64,000 bases of DNA from a virus (lineage: Duplodnaviria > Heunggongvirae > Uroviricota > Caudoviricetes). A program made the position numbers and the translations under genes. Shown here one piece after another: positions 16,463 through 35,528 of the stretch (positions are counted from its first letter, which is position 1; each line of letters opens with the position of its first letter). The notes under the pieces are model-generated. The model made no database searches. It was not told where the DNA came from and saw only the letters and a program-made list of their open reading frames with translations. The DNA lies in IMG/VR virus record IMGVR_UViG_2541047712_000002, one strand, 5' to 3'.

Positions 16463-17566
16463 ATGAAAAATAGCTTTGACAGAGCACGCGCAGCGGAGAA
16501 CACCTCAAAAGAGGCGATTGAGTATCTCGAAAGAGCATCTCAAATGCAGGCCGTTATGATCTCGCAGGTTAGCAATGACATGAGATTCTCAGACGCATTC
16601 ATGTTATTCACTCGCTTATCTCTGCTGATAACAAGACGTCGACCAGAGATCGCTGTTCATTGTATTTTGATACATGTTTTGCCGCACATTGCAGATATAA
16701 AAGTAAGTGACATTAATAGGTTCATGGTGAACCAACTGGTCAACCCACTAATACTGGATGGCAAAATTGTTATGGGCCGCCGCGTTTTCTCTCTGATGAA
16801 GCAGTTCCTTAGCTGGTGTGCCTTCCAGGGGATGATCGACGTATCACCATTAAACGATATGTCACTGAATAAAGTTGCCGGTGGCGCAAAGCCAACACCT
16901 CGCGAACGGAAGCTGACCGACGCAGAGGTATGGGTGTTCTGGAATATCTGGGACTACTTCAATGTGTGCGCAGGTACAAAATGGGCAGCCAGGCTATGTC
17001 TTGTATCCGCAAGACGACCTGATGAAGTACTGCGGGCCAGAAAAAGTGAGTTCAACCTTCAGCGTGGAGTTTGGAATCAAGGCAAGAGGAACAAATCTGC
17101 CCGTGAGCATTCGCTGCCTTTAAGCACATTAATGCGCACATGTATTGAAGAGTTGTTCGAATATGGTAAAGACAGCCAGTGGCTTGTGCCTTCGAATAAA
17201 AAAATCGGGAAAGACCTTCCTATGTCTAAAGTGGCAATAGCCCAGGCATTACGTCGTATTCTGGAACGACCAGAACTGATGGAGCTTGAGCCATTTACAC
17301 CCCGAGATTTGCGCCGTACTGCGCGTAGTTACTTCCCAGCATTAGGCATAAGCCAGGAGGTATCACGTAAAATCATGAACCACAGTCTTGAGGGGATAGA
17401 TCGGGTCTACGACCGGCACGATTATATGGACGAGATGCGAGACGCCTTAGAAAGTTTCTCGACGTACATCGCATCAATCGTAGAGCAACCCGATTTAGAC
17501 GAAATTGACCACAAATTTAAGGGAGATCGTCTATCAACAGAGCTTATTCGTGTAAATTTTTCATAG
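16463..17566 (+). CDS. tyrosine recombinase / integrase (P4-like)
   Basis: C-terminal catalytic region ...FTPRDLRRTARSYF...NHSLEGIDRVYDRHDY; first His of the HxxR box is replaced by Arg. Confidence 0.75.
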   Translation: MKNSFDRARAAENTSKEAIEYLERASQMQAVMISQVSNDMRFSDAFMLFTRLSLLITRRRPEIAVHCILIHVLPHIADIKVSDINRFMVNQLVNPLILDGKIVMGRRVFSLMKQFLSWCAFQGMIDVSPLNDMSLNKVAGGAKPTPRERKLTDAEVWVFWNIWDYFNVCAGTKWAARLCLVSARRPDEVLRARKSEFNLQRGVWNQGKRNKSAREHSLPLSTLMRTCIEELFEYGKDSQWLVPSNKKIGKDLPMSKVAIAQALRRILERPELMELEPFTPRDLRRTARSYFPALGISQEVSRKIMNHSLEGIDRVYDRHDYMDEMRDALESFSTYIASIVEQPDLDEIDHKFKGDRLSTELIRVNFS

Positions 17567-17947
17567 AGACTTTATGGCCTCAACAACCTTTTGTGATGCG
17601 CCTTTCTCTTTACCGAATCGCTCGTTATATGCAGCAAGAACCTGTTTTTCGTCCTCGTTAAGAGGAGCAGTGCCTTCTTTGTATAAAAATGCTGCGAGTT
17701 CGGGTTGGCGTTCTTCCAGCACCATCATCATAAGACGACTTGGCTCAATACCCAGTGCCAGCGCCAGCGGACGAACCTTATCGATAGGCAAAGGAATTTT
17801 GCCGCTTTTAATTAAAGAAAGGTTGTTGGCGTTTTTATACCCAATTGTTTTGGCTATCTGGGCCTGGCTCATAGGTGAGGATTCAATCAACCCTGCGATA
17901 AAAGCAGCGTAGCGACTTTCTATAAATTCAATCTTGTTATCAGACAT
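17561..17947 (-). CDS. helix-turn-helix DNA-binding protein (XRE/Cro-like regulator)
   Basis: HTH segment SQAQIAKTIGYKNANNLSLIKSGK; convergent with integrase. Confidence 0.55.
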   Translation of the reverse strand: MSDNKIEFIESRYAAFIAGLIESSPMSQAQIAKTIGYKNANNLSLIKSGKIPLPIDKVRPLALALGIEPSRLMMMVLEERQPELAAFLYKEGTAPLNEDEKQVLAAYNERFGKEKGASQKVVEAIKSL

Positions 17948-30450: not shown

Positions 30451-32790
30451 ATGGCAAAAGGAAAATCCGCACTGGCACTTGCTCTGAAAAAGAAAATCGG
30501 TAGCAACGACGAAATTCAGAAAGTAACTCATTGGATTGACACAGGCTTTCCTCCGTTAAACAAAGCGATTTCCGGTCGTTACGATGGCGGTTTCCCATGT
30601 GGTCGTATCGTAGAAGTATTCGGGCCACCAAGCGCGGGGAAATGTGTTACCGCAGACACCATGCTGCTGACGGAGCGTGGAATGGTAACAGTGAAAGAGT
30701 TGTTTGAGATTGAAGGGTACAAAGCGACATGCACTACTCGCGATGTAGAGCATAACGTTGGACTCATCAATGAAAATGGCGTGATAGAGAAGACCTCACA
30801 CCTGACATGGAACAACCGTCGCAAATTCAAGCGTATTAAGCTGGCATCAGGCGGTTACATCGAGGCTACGTTCCGTCACCCAATTCGTGTGGTTGACGAC
30901 TTAGGCAATATCGTCTGGCGGTATGCTGAAAAAATCAGTGTAGGCGACACGATTCCTTCAATGGTTGGCACACATCAATTCGGCGATCAGCACTTGGATG
31001 CCAATATCGCAAAACTGATGGGCTATTTAATTGCTGACGGATACGTGGCCTCTGAAAATTCTGTGCATTTTTCTAACACAGATCCATTCATCAAGGATGA
31101 GTACTACCGCCTCATTTCGCTGGTATCAGACAAGATGCCAGTTGCGAGAAAACATAACGGCTCGGAAGACCATGTGCTGTTTAGCAAAGAGGTGCGTTCG
31201 CTGCTTTTTAAAGAATATGGTCTGGAGTATGAGAAAGCTGCTGGCAAGCAGGTTCCGTTGAGTGTGCGTCGCGCCAATAGCGAGGCTCAAATTGCATTCC
31301 TTCGCGGCTACTTTGAGCTGGAATGCCACGTCAATGATGGTCGCTGCATTGAGGTTGTGAGCGCGAGTGGGCTGCTGCTACAGCAAATTCGCCTCATGCT
31401 CCTGAATCTGGGGATTACGTCAACTATCTCTGAAAAACACGTCGCGGGTTATGAAAATACATATTACCGGCTGTCATTCAGTGGCTCTAATTACGACCTT
31501 TTTCTGTCAACGATTGGTTTCGAATCTCCGGCACGTTTATCAGTGGCAACCAAACGGGACATTGGTTTTGACCGCACTTACTCAGGCTATGTTCCGCACA
31601 TCAGCGGCTTAGTGAAATCACTCTACGAGTCGCTCACCAAGACCACCCGTGAAGACTACGCTCTGGTAGACCACGTTATTGGCCGCGGCGATCGTGTCGG
31701 AATAGACAAACTGCGAGAAATCTATGTCTCCTTCATTGGCAGAAAGAATCGTTTTAACGAGCATCTGTTTGCACAACTGGCAGCGGTAATTGGCTCTAAC
31801 TTGTTCTACGACGAAGTCGTGGCTATTGAGGAAGGTGAAGCACCAACGTTCGACGTAGCGATGCCGGAAACACACTCTTTCTGGTCTAACGGGATTATCA
31901 GCCACAACACATTCCTTGCAACAGCAGCGATGATCTCCGCTCAAAAACAAGATGGTCTGGCGGTATTCCTCGATCATGAAAACAGTTTTGACGTTGGCCT
32001 GGCTGTCGCCAATGGCCTGAACGCAGATGAGGATGACGGTCAGTGGGTATACAAGCAGCCAGATACCTTCGAAGACTCTGTAGAGTTGATCGGCACAATA
32101 CTTAAATTGGTTCGTGATGAAGAGCTTATCCCCGAATCAGCACCAATCTGTATCGTGGCTGACTCTCTTGCGTCTATGGTTCCGAACTCCAAAGCCGAGA
32201 AGTTCGAAAAGATGGCTGAAGGCACAGCCAAAGACAAAGATCAGCTAAACATGAACGACAATACAGCACTGGCTCGTGCGACGAGTGCGAACTTCCCTAC
32301 TCTGGCTTTGTGGGCACGCAAATACAACGCCTGCATCATCTTCTTGAATCAGGTTCGCACAAAAATCGGTGTAATGTTTGGCGACCCTACTACGTCTCCA
32401 GGCGGCGATTCACCGAAGTTTTACGCTTCTGTGCGCATCCGTCTCGGTGCATCGGTGATGAAGGATGGGAAAGAGAAGATCGGCCAGGACGTAGGCGCAG
32501 AATGCATCAAAAACAAAGTTGCACCACCGTATGGCAAATGCACCTGGAAATTCTACTTCGATCCTACTCGTGGCCTCGACGTTATCGAATCGCTCGTCGA
32601 GTACATGCTGGAAGAAGGATACCTGCCAAAGAACGCCAGCGGGCGAGTTGAAATTGGTGACAAGAAATACACCAAATCGCAGATCGTCGAGATGTATCGG
32701 GAGAAGCCACTGGCTGAAATCATTGCGGCTTTGCAGGCAATCGACGACCGAAGAGCAAAAGACAACCCCACCGAGTCAGTAGAAGAGTAA
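30451..32790 (+). CDS. RecA-family recombinase (UvsX/Sak4-like) interrupted by an intein
   Basis: Walker A GPPSAGK is followed by Cys and ~422 inserted aa, then T resumes the P-loop; extein about 357 aa. Confidence 0.8.
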   Translation: MAKGKSALALALKKKIGSNDEIQKVTHWIDTGFPPLNKAISGRYDGGFPCGRIVEVFGPPSAGKCVTADTMLLTERGMVTVKELFEIEGYKATCTTRDVEHNVGLINENGVIEKTSHLTWNNRRKFKRIKLASGGYIEATFRHPIRVVDDLGNIVWRYAEKISVGDTIPSMVGTHQFGDQHLDANIAKLMGYLIADGYVASENSVHFSNTDPFIKDEYYRLISLVSDKMPVARKHNGSEDHVLFSKEVRSLLFKEYGLEYEKAAGKQVPLSVRRANSEAQIAFLRGYFELECHVNDGRCIEVVSASGLLLQQIRLMLLNLGITSTISEKHVAGYENTYYRLSFSGSNYDLFLSTIGFESPARLSVATKRDIGFDRTYSGYVPHISGLVKSLYESLTKTTREDYALVDHVIGRGDRVGIDKLREIYVSFIGRKNRFNEHLFAQLAAVIGSNLFYDEVVAIEEGEAPTFDVAMPETHSFWSNGIISHNTFLATAAMISAQKQDGLAVFLDHENSFDVGLAVANGLNADEDDGQWVYKQPDTFEDSVELIGTILKLVRDEELIPESAPICIVADSLASMVPNSKAEKFEKMAEGTAKDKDQLNMNDNTALARATSANFPTLALWARKYNACIIFLNQVRTKIGVMFGDPTTSPGGDSPKFYASVRIRLGASVMKDGKEKIGQDVGAECIKNKVAPPYGKCTWKFYFDPTRGLDVIESLVEYMLEEGYLPKNASGRVEIGDKKYTKSQIVEMYREKPLAEIIAALQAIDDRRAKDNPTESVEE
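30643..31908 (+). mobile_element. intein with LAGLIDADG homing-endonuclease domain
   Basis: starts with Cys codon tgt at 30643 right after the P-loop Lys; ends ...SHN at 31908 followed by Thr; LAGLIDADG-type blocks LMGYLIADGYV and FLRGYFELECHV. Confidence 0.7.
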
Positions 32791-32882
32791 ACACAAGGCG
32801 TCCACAGGACGCCTTTTTTATCTCTTGAAAATATATAGGTACTTACTTATTATTTTCGCATAACAACCACATAGGAAAACAC

Positions 32883-33083
32883 ATGATCAAAATCTATCTA
32901 TTGGCAGTAACCACAGGCCTTTCAGTGGCTCTCATCTACGGTTTACTGGTTCCGTCGCTGATTTCTACCAAGAGTGATTTAGCCGTCATGTTTGGAGTTA
33001 TCGTTGGTTTTGGTGCTCCTGTAATCGGTCTTATTGCTGGTCGTAAGTTTATCAACTCATTAATCAAAGCAAAGGGGAAATAA
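32883..33083 (+). CDS. small two-helix membrane protein
   Basis: 66 aa, two hydrophobic segments; immediately precedes the SPFH gene. Confidence 0.4.
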   Translation: MIKIYLLAVTTGLSVALIYGLLVPSLISTKSDLAVMFGVIVGFGAPVIGLIAGRKFINSLIKAKGK

Positions 33084-33086
33084 GTA

Positions 33087-33917
33087 ATGAAGAAAGGTTT
33101 ACTTGCAGTTGCTCTGGCGGCTATTTGCACAATGGGTCTTACTGGCTGCGATCGCGTGGAGCCTGGATACGTTGGCATCAAAGTAAACAAATTAGGTGAA
33201 GACAAAGGGATTGGTGAAGTGGTTGGCGTTGGTCGCCAATGGACAGGTCTTAACACCGAACTTTACGTATTCCCGACCTTCAAACAAATGAAGACCTACG
33301 ACGAGCCGTTCACATTCCAGATGAGTGACGGTACTGCTATTGGTCACAAAATTGGCGTTGCGTATCTGGTTAATCGTGACAAGGTAACGACGGTGTTCCA
33401 GACCTATCGCAAAGGCGTAGACGATATCACCGAATCAGATCTGCGTCAGAAAATTGCCGACTCTCTAAACCGTTTGGCCAGCCGTATGACCACTGACTCA
33501 TTTATCGACGGTGGTAAGGCACAATTGCTGGACAACGCACTGAAAGATATTCAGAAAGAGATGTCTCCGGTTGGTATTGAGGTACTGAGCCTGTCATGGG
33601 TTGGAAAGCCTGATTACCCAAAAACTGTCATTGAATCTATTAACGCCAAAGTAACGGCTAACCAGCGTACTCTGCAACGTCAGCAGGAAGTTGAACAACG
33701 TAAAGCTGAGGCGAATATGCTACGTGAACAGGCTAATGGTGAAGCTGATGCTATCCGTGCTCGTGCGCAAGCAGAAGCAGACGCCATTCGTCTGCGCGGT
33801 GAAGCTCTGCGTCAAAACCCGAACGTTATGGAACTGGAAGCCATCAATAAATGGAATGGCCAGTTACCGCAGTACATGACTCAAGGGGCTAACACTCCTT
33901 TCATTACAGTGAAATAA
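33087..33917 (+). CDS. SPFH/band-7 (prohibitin/stomatin-like) lipoprotein
   Basis: lipobox LTGC after signal peptide; SPFH-like core; C-terminal Ala/Glu/Arg-rich coiled coil. Confidence 0.55.
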   Translation: MKKGLLAVALAAICTMGLTGCDRVEPGYVGIKVNKLGEDKGIGEVVGVGRQWTGLNTELYVFPTFKQMKTYDEPFTFQMSDGTAIGHKIGVAYLVNRDKVTTVFQTYRKGVDDITESDLRQKIADSLNRLASRMTTDSFIDGGKAQLLDNALKDIQKEMSPVGIEVLSLSWVGKPDYPKTVIESINAKVTANQRTLQRQQEVEQRKAEANMLREQANGEADAIRARAQAEADAIRLRGEALRQNPNVMELEAINKWNGQLPQYMTQGANTPFITVK

Positions 33918-34008
33918 CTCCCCTAAAAAGTTCAGGCGTCCAGTTGGACGCCTTTTTTATCGCAATTATCTTATTAAGAAAACAATTTGTTTAAAAGGAT
34001 AAGAAAAC

Positions 34009-34434
34009 ATGACAGCTATTAAGAAACTCTACGATGCCGCAAACGTGGCTCTGGATGTTATTGATGATGAAGTAGCAAAAGGCTTTCCTGAACCTGATTG
34101 GGCGCATCAGCTACGAAACGCTATCGCAGAAATGACCCCACCAGATCCAACCCCCGACGAGACAGACTGGCAGCGATTCATCCGTATGTACGCTCAGGAA
34201 ATAGGTCCAACGCCAACGGCAGAGCAGGCAATGCTGCTGAAATACTTCAAAGAGGCGGGAGAGGATTTACCAATTGATGACTCAGCATATTGGTTCCACT
34301 GCGCATGGCGTAAGTATGACGTGATATTCACACAAGGCATGGGAAGCAAAGATATGGTTGTGTGGCATCTACTCCATATAGACACAGCCGTTGACAGAGT
34401 TATTGAACAGTTTTTCCCTAAACAAGAAGATTGA
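34009..34434 (+). CDS. hypothetical protein
   Basis: 141-aa ORF preceded by AACAATTTGTTTAAAA and AAGAAAACATG context. Confidence 0.45.
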   Translation: MTAIKKLYDAANVALDVIDDEVAKGFPEPDWAHQLRNAIAEMTPPDPTPDETDWQRFIRMYAQEIGPTPTAEQAMLLKYFKEAGEDLPIDDSAYWFHCAWRKYDVIFTQGMGSKDMVVWHLLHIDTAVDRVIEQFFPKQED

Positions 34435-34765: not shown

Positions 34766-34804
34766 GTTTACAGTAAAATTTATATAAGTTAGTATCTACC
34801 TATC

Positions 34805-34984
34805 ATGAAGATTTTTATTGAATACTTGTTACTCATCGTTTCAATAGCTTTTGTCATCGACTGCATTTTCACTGGTGTCATTCGTAAAGTCTTTTCCCCG
34901 GTGCACGACGTAGTCATAAACGCTTTGGCTATCGTGCTCGTATTTAATTCAGCATTTGATGTAATCAAAGAGGTGGCAGCATGA
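34805..34984 (+). CDS. small membrane protein (59 aa, not in ORF track)
   Basis: hydrophobic MKIFIEYLLLIVSIAFVIDCIF...; stop overlaps next ATG. Confidence 0.25.
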   Translation: MKIFIEYLLLIVSIAFVIDCIFTGVIRKVFSPVHDVVINALAIVLVFNSAFDVIKEVAA

Positions 34985-35316
34985 AGGCCATCCCATTCGC
35001 GCTGTTGTTCCTTTCTTCGATCGTTGTGGCCGACACCACTGTTTATCAGTGTGAAATGTCTGTAGCCGACGTTAAGAATGGCGCTCTTACCGACGTCATA
35101 AAAGCACCATATGGAGCGATGGTCGTAGACAGCGGCGACCAGTTCTATGTTGTGCGTGACGATCGAGTGTTGTCATCCCCATATCTCACAAATCGTAATG
35201 GCAAATTAACCGGCGTCGGAGAAGACCACTTCGTATACAACAAATACAAGGGCTTCTATGGCGTTCACGCTTCTCAGCAAAGCTACCTTTTCGATGACTG
35301 CAAGGAGGTTGGATAA
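34981..35316 (+). CDS. secreted/periplasmic small protein
   Basis: signal peptide MKAIPFALLFLSSIVVA, two Cys. Confidence 0.45.
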   Translation: MKAIPFALLFLSSIVVADTTVYQCEMSVADVKNGALTDVIKAPYGAMVVDSGDQFYVVRDDRVLSSPYLTNRNGKLTGVGEDHFVYNKYKGFYGVHASQQSYLFDDCKEVG

Positions 35317-35528
35317 TGGCATTAACACTGGCAGGTCTGGAAATCGAGAAAACAAGCGGCTACTGGCGTGCTAAGGGTTTCAAGCAGCCTGGCATTCTTG
35401 AGCGTCTGGAACGTGAAGATGGGTATATCGTCCACCAGCGGCGTGAATGGCGTATGTACGATCCAGAAACAGGAAAACTGACTACAAAAGCCGGAACACT
35501 TTGGGGTCTGTTGAAGAAAATACACTAA
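35316..35528 (+). CDS. hypothetical protein
   Basis: 70-aa ORF, ATGG overlap with previous stop. Confidence 0.35.
   Translation: MALTLAGLEIEKTSGYWRAKGFKQPGILERLEREDGYIVHQRREWRMYDPETGKLTTKAGTLWGLLKKIH

Follow-up and report, generated by a model that had tools for sequence, protein, structure and literature searches.

A predicted SPFH lipoprotein and its conserved two-helix partner in an SSU5-type phage-plasmid and across tailed phages

Why should a tailed phage carry a gene for a protein of the SPFH family? SPFH scaffolds such as HflK/C, the prohibitins and the flotillins are structurally known as membrane cages, most bacterial members have no known client and the phage-borne members have none; a 2026 phage-genome paper calls the reason for an SPFH gene in a phage genome unclear (PMC13239085), and the twelve-subfamily classification of SPFH proteins makes no mention of lipoprotein or phage members (PMC2636767). 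We address this question for two adjacent genes in the IMG/VR virus record IMGVR_UViG_2541047712_000002, of which a stretch of 64,000 nucleotides (the window) was analyzed and which, by its sequence, is an SSU5/pHCM2-type Escherichia coli phage-plasmid. The genes encode a membrane protein of 66 amino acids (aa) and a 276-aa SPFH protein, and we lean toward the view that the pair forms a periplasm-facing scaffold module of the inner membrane, expressed early or under stress, that would act on an inner-membrane client or on membrane integrity.

Both are real genes. An earlier note on the window had described a 66-aa two-helix membrane protein followed 4 nt later by a lipoprotein with an SPFH-like core and a long charged coiled coil, and the two open reading frames (ORFs) lie exactly where it placed them (table 1). 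The ATG of the SPFH gene begins 4 nt past the stop of the 66-aa gene, with 3 nt between the TAA of the one and the ATG of the other, and its Shine-Dalgarno sequence (GGGGA, 33074-33078) falls within the end of the small gene, which has its own at 32873-32876 (AGGA). Read directly, the N-terminus of the 276-aa protein (MKKGLLAVALAAICTMGLTG, followed at once by C) comprises a basic n-region, an uncharged h-region and the lipobox L-T-G-C with Cys21, which bears out the LTGC motif of the note; it conforms to the lipoprotein rule (K/R in the n-region, [LVI][ASTVI][GAS]-C, Cys within 15-35), lipidation itself being predicted. The layout is a signal peptide (1-20), LTG-C21, Asp22, an SPFH core (~23-176) and a long helix (179-243), with a conserved C-terminal W256-x-G258-x-x-P261 that forms invariant columns in two alignments (A1 and A2). 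A Band_7 profile match, the absence of which the note had named as grounds for rejecting its proposal, was found well above the cut-off (Pfam PF01145: E 2.6e-30, 106.2 bits vs 23.6; residues 23-209, profile positions 2-176 of 176), and the PHROG profile phrog_200 'lipoprotein' matches at E 3e-108.

The SPFH core and the long helix are also seen in an AlphaFold model built on a 67-sequence alignment (predicted local distance difference test, pLDDT, 88.4; the single-sequence version, at pLDDT 47, was unusable). In the model an N-terminal helix (the signal peptide) is followed by a beta-rich core, helices, a further strand, a continuous 65-residue helix (179-243) and a short second helix, with strands at residues 21-95 and 164-176; the Ala/Glu-rich long helix aligns with the prohibitin coiled coil, and some family members are named "prohibitin family protein" by NCBI. 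A Foldseek search of the PDB returned 69 matches at E <= 0.001, and the 50 listed are all SPFH-family or vault proteins. HflK (7vhq_E, E 8.9e-15), HflC, PHB1/2 and erlin1/2 lead, stomatin and flotillin rank lower, and the NfeD-associated QmcA comes 35th, behind HflK/C, PHB, erlin, stomatin and flotillin entries; at the level of sequence profiles, the matches to solved structures are weak and roughly equal for QmcA, HflK, PHB and HflC. Because the best fold matches are HflK/C, PHB and erlin while the HflK and HflC equivalog models fail widely, the family is, as judged from model and alignment, an SPFH subfamily of its own, with its greatest likeness to the extracytoplasmic cage formers. Database names within the family are misleading ('serine protease', 'RIIB lysis inhibitor', 'transposase', 'protein QmcA', 'HflK family protein'), and only Band_7 is supported among them; the legacy 'serine protease' label was dropped for the protein studied here because its Pfam domains are Band_7 and a weak flotillin match only.

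The 66-aa protein has two hydrophobic stretches (direct reading and hydropathy scan), a short loop, STKSD, that joins the two helices, and a basic C-terminal tail, GRKFINSLIKAKGK; given the tail and the two helices, the positive-inside rule predicts an N-in/C-in hairpin. It matches the PHROG profile phrog_1130 'membrane protein' (E 2.3e-25) and no Pfam family at E <= 0.01. Its conserved PxLIS motif (P24, S28) is predicted to lie at the periplasmic end of helix 1, and in an alignment of 33 diverse partners (A3) the Pro is invariant and the Ser near-invariant. The ORF is under purifying selection (median dN/dS 0.16 over 128 pairs with dS > 0.1), and the protein evolves fast; a word-indexed homolog search recovered only close E. 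coli relatives, and the wider partner family was gathered through gene neighborhoods and fusions.

The earlier note had treated the two genes as a module, and the conservation of their arrangement argues strongly in its favor: the small upstream gene is a conserved functional partner. In 80 of 82 viral loci the SPFH gene is accompanied by an intact two-helix ORF bearing L(V/L)PxLIS; of the other two, one has a frameshift and one is a truncated contig. Among species-representative genomes the partner ORF lies beside the SPFH gene in 52 of 77 scorable loci, with two further loci in which the genes are fused (L125 and L131) and one in which they are split by IS1; the partner-bearing hosts span Enterobacterales, Sutterella, Dyella, Leptospira, Saprospirales, Dependentiae and an actinobacterium, and the partnerless loci come mostly from a more distant Bacteroidota clade (~30% identity). 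In the P2-like phage P88, the SPFH protein of which is 77% identical, a 67-aa two-helix ORF with only 25% identity over 44 aligned residues precedes the SPFH gene with a 4-nt overlap.

An exhaustive search of 1.84 billion cluster representatives yielded 195 clusters at E <= 1e-30, and about 18 of the best 150 are single-chain fusions in which the two-helix PxLIS domain is followed by a basic linker, a third hydrophobic segment and the SPFH domain (P0157, P0167, P0168, P0176, P0178, P0184, P0186, P0198, P0200, P0201, P0203, P0218, P0223, P0224, P0233, P0241, P0257 and P0273). Additionally, the PHROG profile carries ~80 extra N-terminal positions. The fusions establish a functional coupling of the two-helix protein and the SPFH protein. 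A lipobox-type Cys after the third segment is kept in all 16 scored fusions, and by eye in P0184 and P0200; the fusion precursor may be cut at this internal lipobox, or the Cys may have another role.

Variants of the pair were recorded alongside. In a prophage of the E. coli chromosome CP178302.1 (L088, 3018-4828), IS1 InsA/InsB-like ORFs, recognized by eye, separate the two genes, and a Shigella flexneri locus (L087) has the same IS1-like split. The small gene is frameshifted or N-terminally truncated (a 55-aa GTG-start remnant) beside an intact SPFH gene in L035 (3739-3997) and L085, either through partner decay or through sequencing error. In Klebsiella phage KpS8 (L164, 2129-3376) a 54-aa charged soluble protein, gp224, is encoded between the partner gp225 and the SPFH protein gp223 and may be a third component in that lineage. 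The small gene is also mosaic: in phage Cyrano the SPFH protein (CYRAN_57) is 100% identical to that encoded in the window and the partner (CYRAN_56) merely 73%, and in the relative L031 (L029 was also compared) the values are ~95% and ~59% with saturated synonymous divergence. Recombination appears to have a breakpoint at the gene boundary, with exchange of old partner alleles.

On which side of which membrane would the SPFH domain lie? The lipoprotein signal peptide argues that the 276-aa protein is exported, and because the fusions insert a third membrane pass, their SPFH domain should lie on the side opposite to the hairpin termini, outside the cytoplasm; it is hence predicted to face the periplasm. 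Asp at position +2 of a lipoprotein is an inner-membrane retention signal in E. coli (the Lol-avoidance rule), so that inner-membrane retention is the most likely fate of the 276-aa protein, and the sequence CDRVEPG, with its Asp at +2, is kept in close enterobacterial relatives. Of 133 scorable cluster representatives, 117 carry the Cys anchor and in ~15 its place is taken by a plain transmembrane anchor at the N-terminus, an interchange that points to the inner membrane as the home of the family.

The pair also has transcription signals of its own (table 1). The terminators that bound the cassette share an identical 16-nt stretch, GGACGCCTTTTTTATC (32807-32822 and 33946-33961), with the same stem and different loops, which could be a relic of cassette acquisition or a reused terminator module. 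The sharing recurs in four diverged relatives, where the stem of the upstream terminator is kept as well, and the promoter and the downstream terminator are likewise conserved in relatives. The consensus of the palindrome that fills the promoter spacer, ATARGTAAGTACTTACYTAT (ATARGTAAGT/ACTTACYTAT, 20 bp), has 15 sites in the window when up to 4 mismatches are allowed, where 0.03 would be expected. All copies are intergenic although ~90% of the window is coding, 14 of the 15 lie within 170 nt upstream of a + strand gene, and the genes 3' of them include those for the single-stranded DNA-binding protein (SSB), SbcD, the large subunit of ribonucleotide reductase (RNR) and ThyX; a weaker copy (17976, 5 mismatches) lies between a repressor homolog (17561-17947) and a divergent small ORF. 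We infer that the palindrome may be the operator or promoter signature of an early DNA-metabolism regulon. In P88 the pair lies in the early operon, with cox on one side and a replication gene on the other, and its early-region position in lytic phages fits the early-regulon reading.

Expression data exist for the identical SPFH gene of Cyrano in E. coli LF82 (PMC9928086, S1 Table; log2 normalized reads, two replicates per condition, lysogeny broth (LB) overnight vs 6 h in macrophages). The partner gene CYRAN_56 rises from the floor in LB (2.32/2.32) to 7.61/7.70 in macrophages and CYRAN_57 from 4.30/3.02 to 7.25/7.42, and values in culture medium are intermediate; the flanking genes remain low (recA, 3.56/3.12 in LB and ~4.06 in macrophages; CYRAN_58, 2.69/2.32 and 4.20/3.94) (PMC9928086). 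Because it is induced in macrophages with its flanks at background, the pair is an autonomous unit that is expressed conditionally. CYRAN_60-62 form the next operator-bearing unit; their homologs are preceded in the window by the palindrome at 34784, and this unit is co-induced in macrophages at 6 h (log2 8.3-9.0) (PMC9928086). A reading of the pair as a constitutively expressed moron was considered and dropped, since it is at the floor in LB, is missing from the authors' list of LB-expressed morons (5-fold criterion; PMC9928086) and shares its operator with other genes.

The family is common, in E. coli genomes, in SSU5-type plasmids and in phages from N4-like to crAss-like: 377 of 50,697 phage records encode an SPFH relative. 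Temperate carriers include phiP27, Stx2a-converting phages, P88 and phi1026b; strictly lytic carriers include the N4-like S6 and Moo19, the rV5-like KpS8, the FelixO1-like phiEa104, Pseudomonas phage Clew-1 and its 45-kb relatives, phiCbK-like phages, jumbo phages and one crAss-like phage, and SPFH folds are frequent in giant viruses too. The partner is present in S6 (gp044), KpS8 (gp225), phi1026b (gp49) and phiP27 (an unannotated ORF) and ambiguous in Clew-1 and CcrSwift, where the upstream protein has one helix and three helices, respectively. Among complete E. coli genomes 283 of 5,426 have a match, at 195 plasmid-borne and 101 chromosomal places. In Dyella and Leptospira the pair is flanked by housekeeping genes (ribonucleotide reductase, succinate dehydrogenase and others) with no conserved third gene; the module is hence cellular as well as viral, and it appears to be self-contained. 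Across phyla the SPFH protein retains 30-47% identity.

From these observations we infer the following mechanism. The 276-aa product would be exported, lipid-modified at Cys21 and most likely held in the outer leaflet of the inner membrane, which would place an HflK/prohibitin-like SPFH domain and its long helix in the periplasm. By analogy with its structural relatives, copies of the protein would probably join in a ring or cage enclosing part of the membrane; the 66-aa hairpin would be a dedicated subunit, its PxLIS loop positioned at the periplasmic membrane surface beside the lipid-anchored SPFH domain. Because the pair is a promoter-terminator unit of its own with a palindromic operator common to DNA-metabolism genes, it would be silent while the plasmid is quiescent and switched on during early or stress-induced expression. 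In an induced or infected cell, the pair would serve to control either an inner-membrane client or membrane integrity; by analogy, the leading candidate is HflK/C-type modulation of FtsH-like quality control, and interference with FtsH by a phage has a precedent in lambda CIII. Which client is involved, and what the phage gains, is our guess, and a generic target seems likelier than a phage-specific receptor because the module is conserved across phyla, lifestyles and non-viral contexts.

Several observations weigh against this scaffold reading. The NCBIfam equivalogs of its closest structural relatives are missed by a wide margin (hflC, 30.2 bits vs 134.4; hflK, 18.7 bits vs 159.4), and since these models fail and a single SPFH gene is present, FtsH binding is proposed by analogy only. 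The +2 residue is Glu or Tyr in more distant enterobacterial phage copies (KpS8, S6), and PM0222, a possibly related HflK/C-like protein of a Pasteurella multocida prophage that signals via TLR1/2 and has a part in mouse virulence, was detected in outer-membrane vesicles (PMC9872710), at odds with the inner-membrane retention that Asp at +2 predicts here; together, these two facts mean that some members of the family may be anchored in the outer membrane. In macrophages most of the other early genes of Cyrano that bear the operator (SSB, RNR and SbcD) stay near background (PMC9928086) while the pair rises, so that co-regulation is partial and the operator reading unproven, and the RNA-seq comparison consists of two replicates with few reads on the small gene. 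Finally, the localization and oligomerization of the pair are predicted, and its client is conjectural.

What else might the pair do? An early-made scaffold and hairpin could alter the inner membrane so as to block DNA injection by a second phage, with an outcome comparable to that of T4 Imm/Sp or P22 SieA. Exclusion is a classic function of phage lipoproteins (T5 Llp, Cor), the pair holds an early-region position in many phage types, strictly lytic ones included, its mosaic, fast-changing partner beside a conserved SPFH protein is a pattern that arms-race genes can display, and the SPFH gene of the Vi01-like phage PhiSH19 adjoins an annotated superinfection exclusion gene (PMC3220722). Superinfection exclusion, which the earlier note had raised next to membrane remodeling, is the main rival to the scaffold reading; we nevertheless consider it unlikely. 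PADLOC-DB v2 contains no defense model that matches either protein, or any of four downstream genes, at E <= 0.1; in chromosomes the module also occurs outside prophages, surrounded by housekeeping genes; conservation of the SPFH protein extends across phyla, unlike that of typical exclusion proteins, which are narrow and fast-evolving; and no experimental report of such a role was found in the literature. The macrophage induction of the Cyrano pair (~5- to 40-fold at 6 h, its neighbors excepted; PMC9928086) might instead suggest a surface factor of lysogenic conversion, a lipoprotein acting on the envelope or the animal host, which could serve as vesicle cargo and TLR1/2 agonist in the way reported for PM0222 (PMC9872710). 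The moron-like anatomy of the cassette, with its own promoter and terminators, and its retention in Yersinia pestis pMT1-type and Salmonella enterica 106.7-kb (pHCM2-size) plasmids are in keeping with this idea, to which we give little credence: the LF82 authors' 5-fold criterion produced no moron call in LB, the gene is carried by many strictly lytic phages and by environmental bacteria with no animal host, the homology of PM0222 to the present family is unverified, and Asp at +2 predicts inner-membrane retention rather than exposure at the surface or in vesicles.

A role in lysis timing, with the 66-aa protein as a class II holin- or antiholin-like hairpin that the SPFH scaffold confines or releases, draws on the class II holin layout (~66 aa, two helices, N-in/C-in and a basic C-tail, by direct reading), on the established capacity of SPFH cages to sequester membrane proteins (HflK/C with FtsH) and on a 'RIIB lysis inhibitor' label in the database record of one relative (H53). 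It is very improbable. The architecture of a class II holin is there, but an adjacent endolysin and a holin family match are absent: no endolysin lies beside the pair in the loci examined, the holin Pfam matches are noise (2 of 33 partners, E 0.15), the holin, endolysin and Rz/Rz1 cassette of Cyrano lies elsewhere (Rz and Rz1 being CYRAN_24 and CYRAN_25), and chromosomal copies occur in non-prophage contexts. Nor is the pair a two-component spanin (Rz/Rz1), its membrane protein having no periplasmic domain and its lipoprotein being a 276-aa SPFH protein. The earlier note had compared the locus with NfeD-SPFH operons, in which a cytoplasm-facing stomatin/flotillin-type scaffold is joined by an NfeD partner. 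The gene arrangement does recall them, as the membrane-protein gene is adjacent to, co-oriented with and translationally coupled to the SPFH gene, and QmcA is among the weak sequence-profile matches; the NfeD partner does not hold, and as an account of the pair this reading is essentially refuted. The NfeD family of Pfam is matched by 0 of 33 diverse partners even at E <= 10, a profile of the partner proteins run against PDB sequences did not recover YbbJ, the NfeD partner of QmcA, and 66 aa, which is two helices and a short tail, is too small for the oligonucleotide/oligosaccharide-binding (OB) fold of NfeD. Carrying a lipoprotein signal peptide, the SPFH protein would be exported and is predicted to face the periplasm rather than the cytoplasm, and its fold is nearer to HflK/C, PHB and erlin than to QmcA, which is only its 35th structural match. 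We therefore retain the periplasm-facing scaffold as the preferred reading. Beyond it, we offer as a tentative and rather speculative extension that the PxLIS two-helix protein and the lipid-anchored periplasmic SPFH protein may constitute a distinct system parallel to NfeD-SPFH and HflK/C, made as a single cleaved precursor in some lineages, through which phages of every lifestyle might early on take over a function universal to the inner membrane, such as FtsH-type quality control or DNA entry; it would then be a general device for host takeover or exclusion.

The surroundings of the pair are those of a phage-plasmid. The region of the locus is matched at 100% identity by ~110-kb non-mobilizable E. 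coli plasmids and at 94-99% by the phage records CMS-2020a, PhiR41_1 and Cyrano, in which the label of the large gene reads "SPFH domain-containing protein" or "Stomatin-like integral membrane protein", and that of the small gene "hypothetical" or "membrane protein". As the earlier note had it, the pair lies in the replication region, here between an intein-bearing recA upstream and a Rep3-type repA; the genes 3' of it are a DUF7238 gene, several small ORFs and then, on the opposite strand, the Rep3-type RepA gene. The order recA, two-helix gene, SPFH gene is kept throughout the SSU5 supergroup, including the Y. pestis pMT1-type and S. enterica 106.7-kb plasmids. Many relatives have a recA without the intein (358 aa), which is thus polymorphic across the plasmid family.

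Table 1. Coordinates in the window of the gene pair, its transcription signals and neighboring features.
Feature	Position	Strand	Basis or remark
RecA/UvsX-like recombinase with LAGLIDADG homing endonuclease intein	30451-32790	+	Intein in P-loop: GPPSAGK/C...SHN/TFLATAAM
Intrinsic terminator after recA, stem AAGGCGTCC-aca-GGACGCCTT and T-run	32795-32822	+	Terminator scan; upstream cassette boundary
Sigma-70-type promoter	-35 TTGAAA 32825-32830; 17-nt spacer; -10 TATTAT 32848-32853	+	Scan, 10/12 matches
Palindrome ATATATAGGT/ACTTACTTAT, operator-like	32831-32850		Fills promoter spacer
Two-helix membrane protein gene, 66 aa	32883-33083	+	ATG start; ORF list
SPFH/Band_7 lipoprotein gene, 276 aa	33087-33917	+	Pfam Band_7, phrog_200, AlphaFold, Foldseek
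Intrinsic terminator after SPFH gene, AGGCGTCC-agtt-GGACGCCT and T-run	33934-33961	+	Terminator scan; downstream cassette boundary
DUF7238 protein	34009-34434	+	Downstream of cassette
Run of small ORFs: phrog_2209, phrog_2077, phrog_804	34805-35528	+	Cyrano label 'P1 Cra protein'
Palindrome positions listed	109, 3543, 7065, 9999, 17976, 20636, 28045, 32831, 34784, 38584, 43268, 47974, 52812, 55025, 59994		

At its core the finding is right but unremarkable, because public annotation already contains both genes, the Band_7 domain and the label 'lipoprotein'. Searches of the full-text literature turned up annotations and no work on what phage SPFH lipoproteins or the two-helix partner do; as far as those searches show, the PxLIS family of non-NfeD partners with its fusions, the breadth of the pair over lytic and temperate phages and its proposed wiring into an early regulon are undescribed. 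The system is experimentally tractable, with a dedicated non-NfeD partner that bears an invariant motif, a proposed early-regulon wiring, induction in macrophages and a defined promoter. If the client is FtsH or a DNA-entry route, the pair would represent a widespread and overlooked mechanism of host takeover or exclusion; if it is neither, the SPFH protein would be a correctly annotated accessory membrane protein.

Among known systems, the phage 'band 7 lipoproteins' (phrog_200 together with phrog_1130) are the family of these two genes itself, known from annotation alone; examples are phi1026b gp48-gp49, Erwinia phage S6 gp045-gp044, the phiCbK-like 'putative band 7 lipoprotein' and CYRAN_57-56. 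PM0222 is the only phage-associated SPFH protein with experimental data that was found in the literature, and resembles the 276-aa protein in being prophage-borne and in TLR1/2 signaling of the kind expected for a lipoprotein. The SPFH-NfeD operons QmcA-YbbJ, YqiK-YqiJ and FloT-YuaF (8z5g) likewise couple an SPFH gene to the gene of a small membrane protein that is probably part of the assembly; they differ in that their partner has the NfeD OB fold, their SPFH protein is cytoplasmic rather than exported, as predicted here, and the QmcA fold is a weaker match. PHB1/PHB2 and erlin1/2 (8rrh, 9o9z, 9vvj) have Foldseek scores near those of HflK/C and lie on the non-cytoplasmic side, yet are eukaryotic organelle proteins that form heteromeric pairs and have neither a lipoprotein anchor nor a two-helix partner.

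The best structural match to the 276-aa protein is E. coli HflK/HflC (7vhp, 7vhq, 7wi3), which builds a periplasm-facing cage around FtsH. At 15-19% sequence identity, HflK/C is a heteromeric pair with transmembrane helices, whereas the present system has a single SPFH gene with a lipid anchor, a much shorter C-terminal region and a dedicated two-helix partner that HflK/C does not possess; indeed, the neighbors of the SPFH gene are the two-helix gene upstream and the DUF7238 gene downstream, and not the second SPFH paralog that is characteristic of HflK/C. What the two share is the order of an N-terminal membrane anchor, an SPFH core, a long helix and a short second helix, and a predicted extracytoplasmic position at the inner membrane, and HflK/C has historically been tied to phage biology through the stability of lambda CII.

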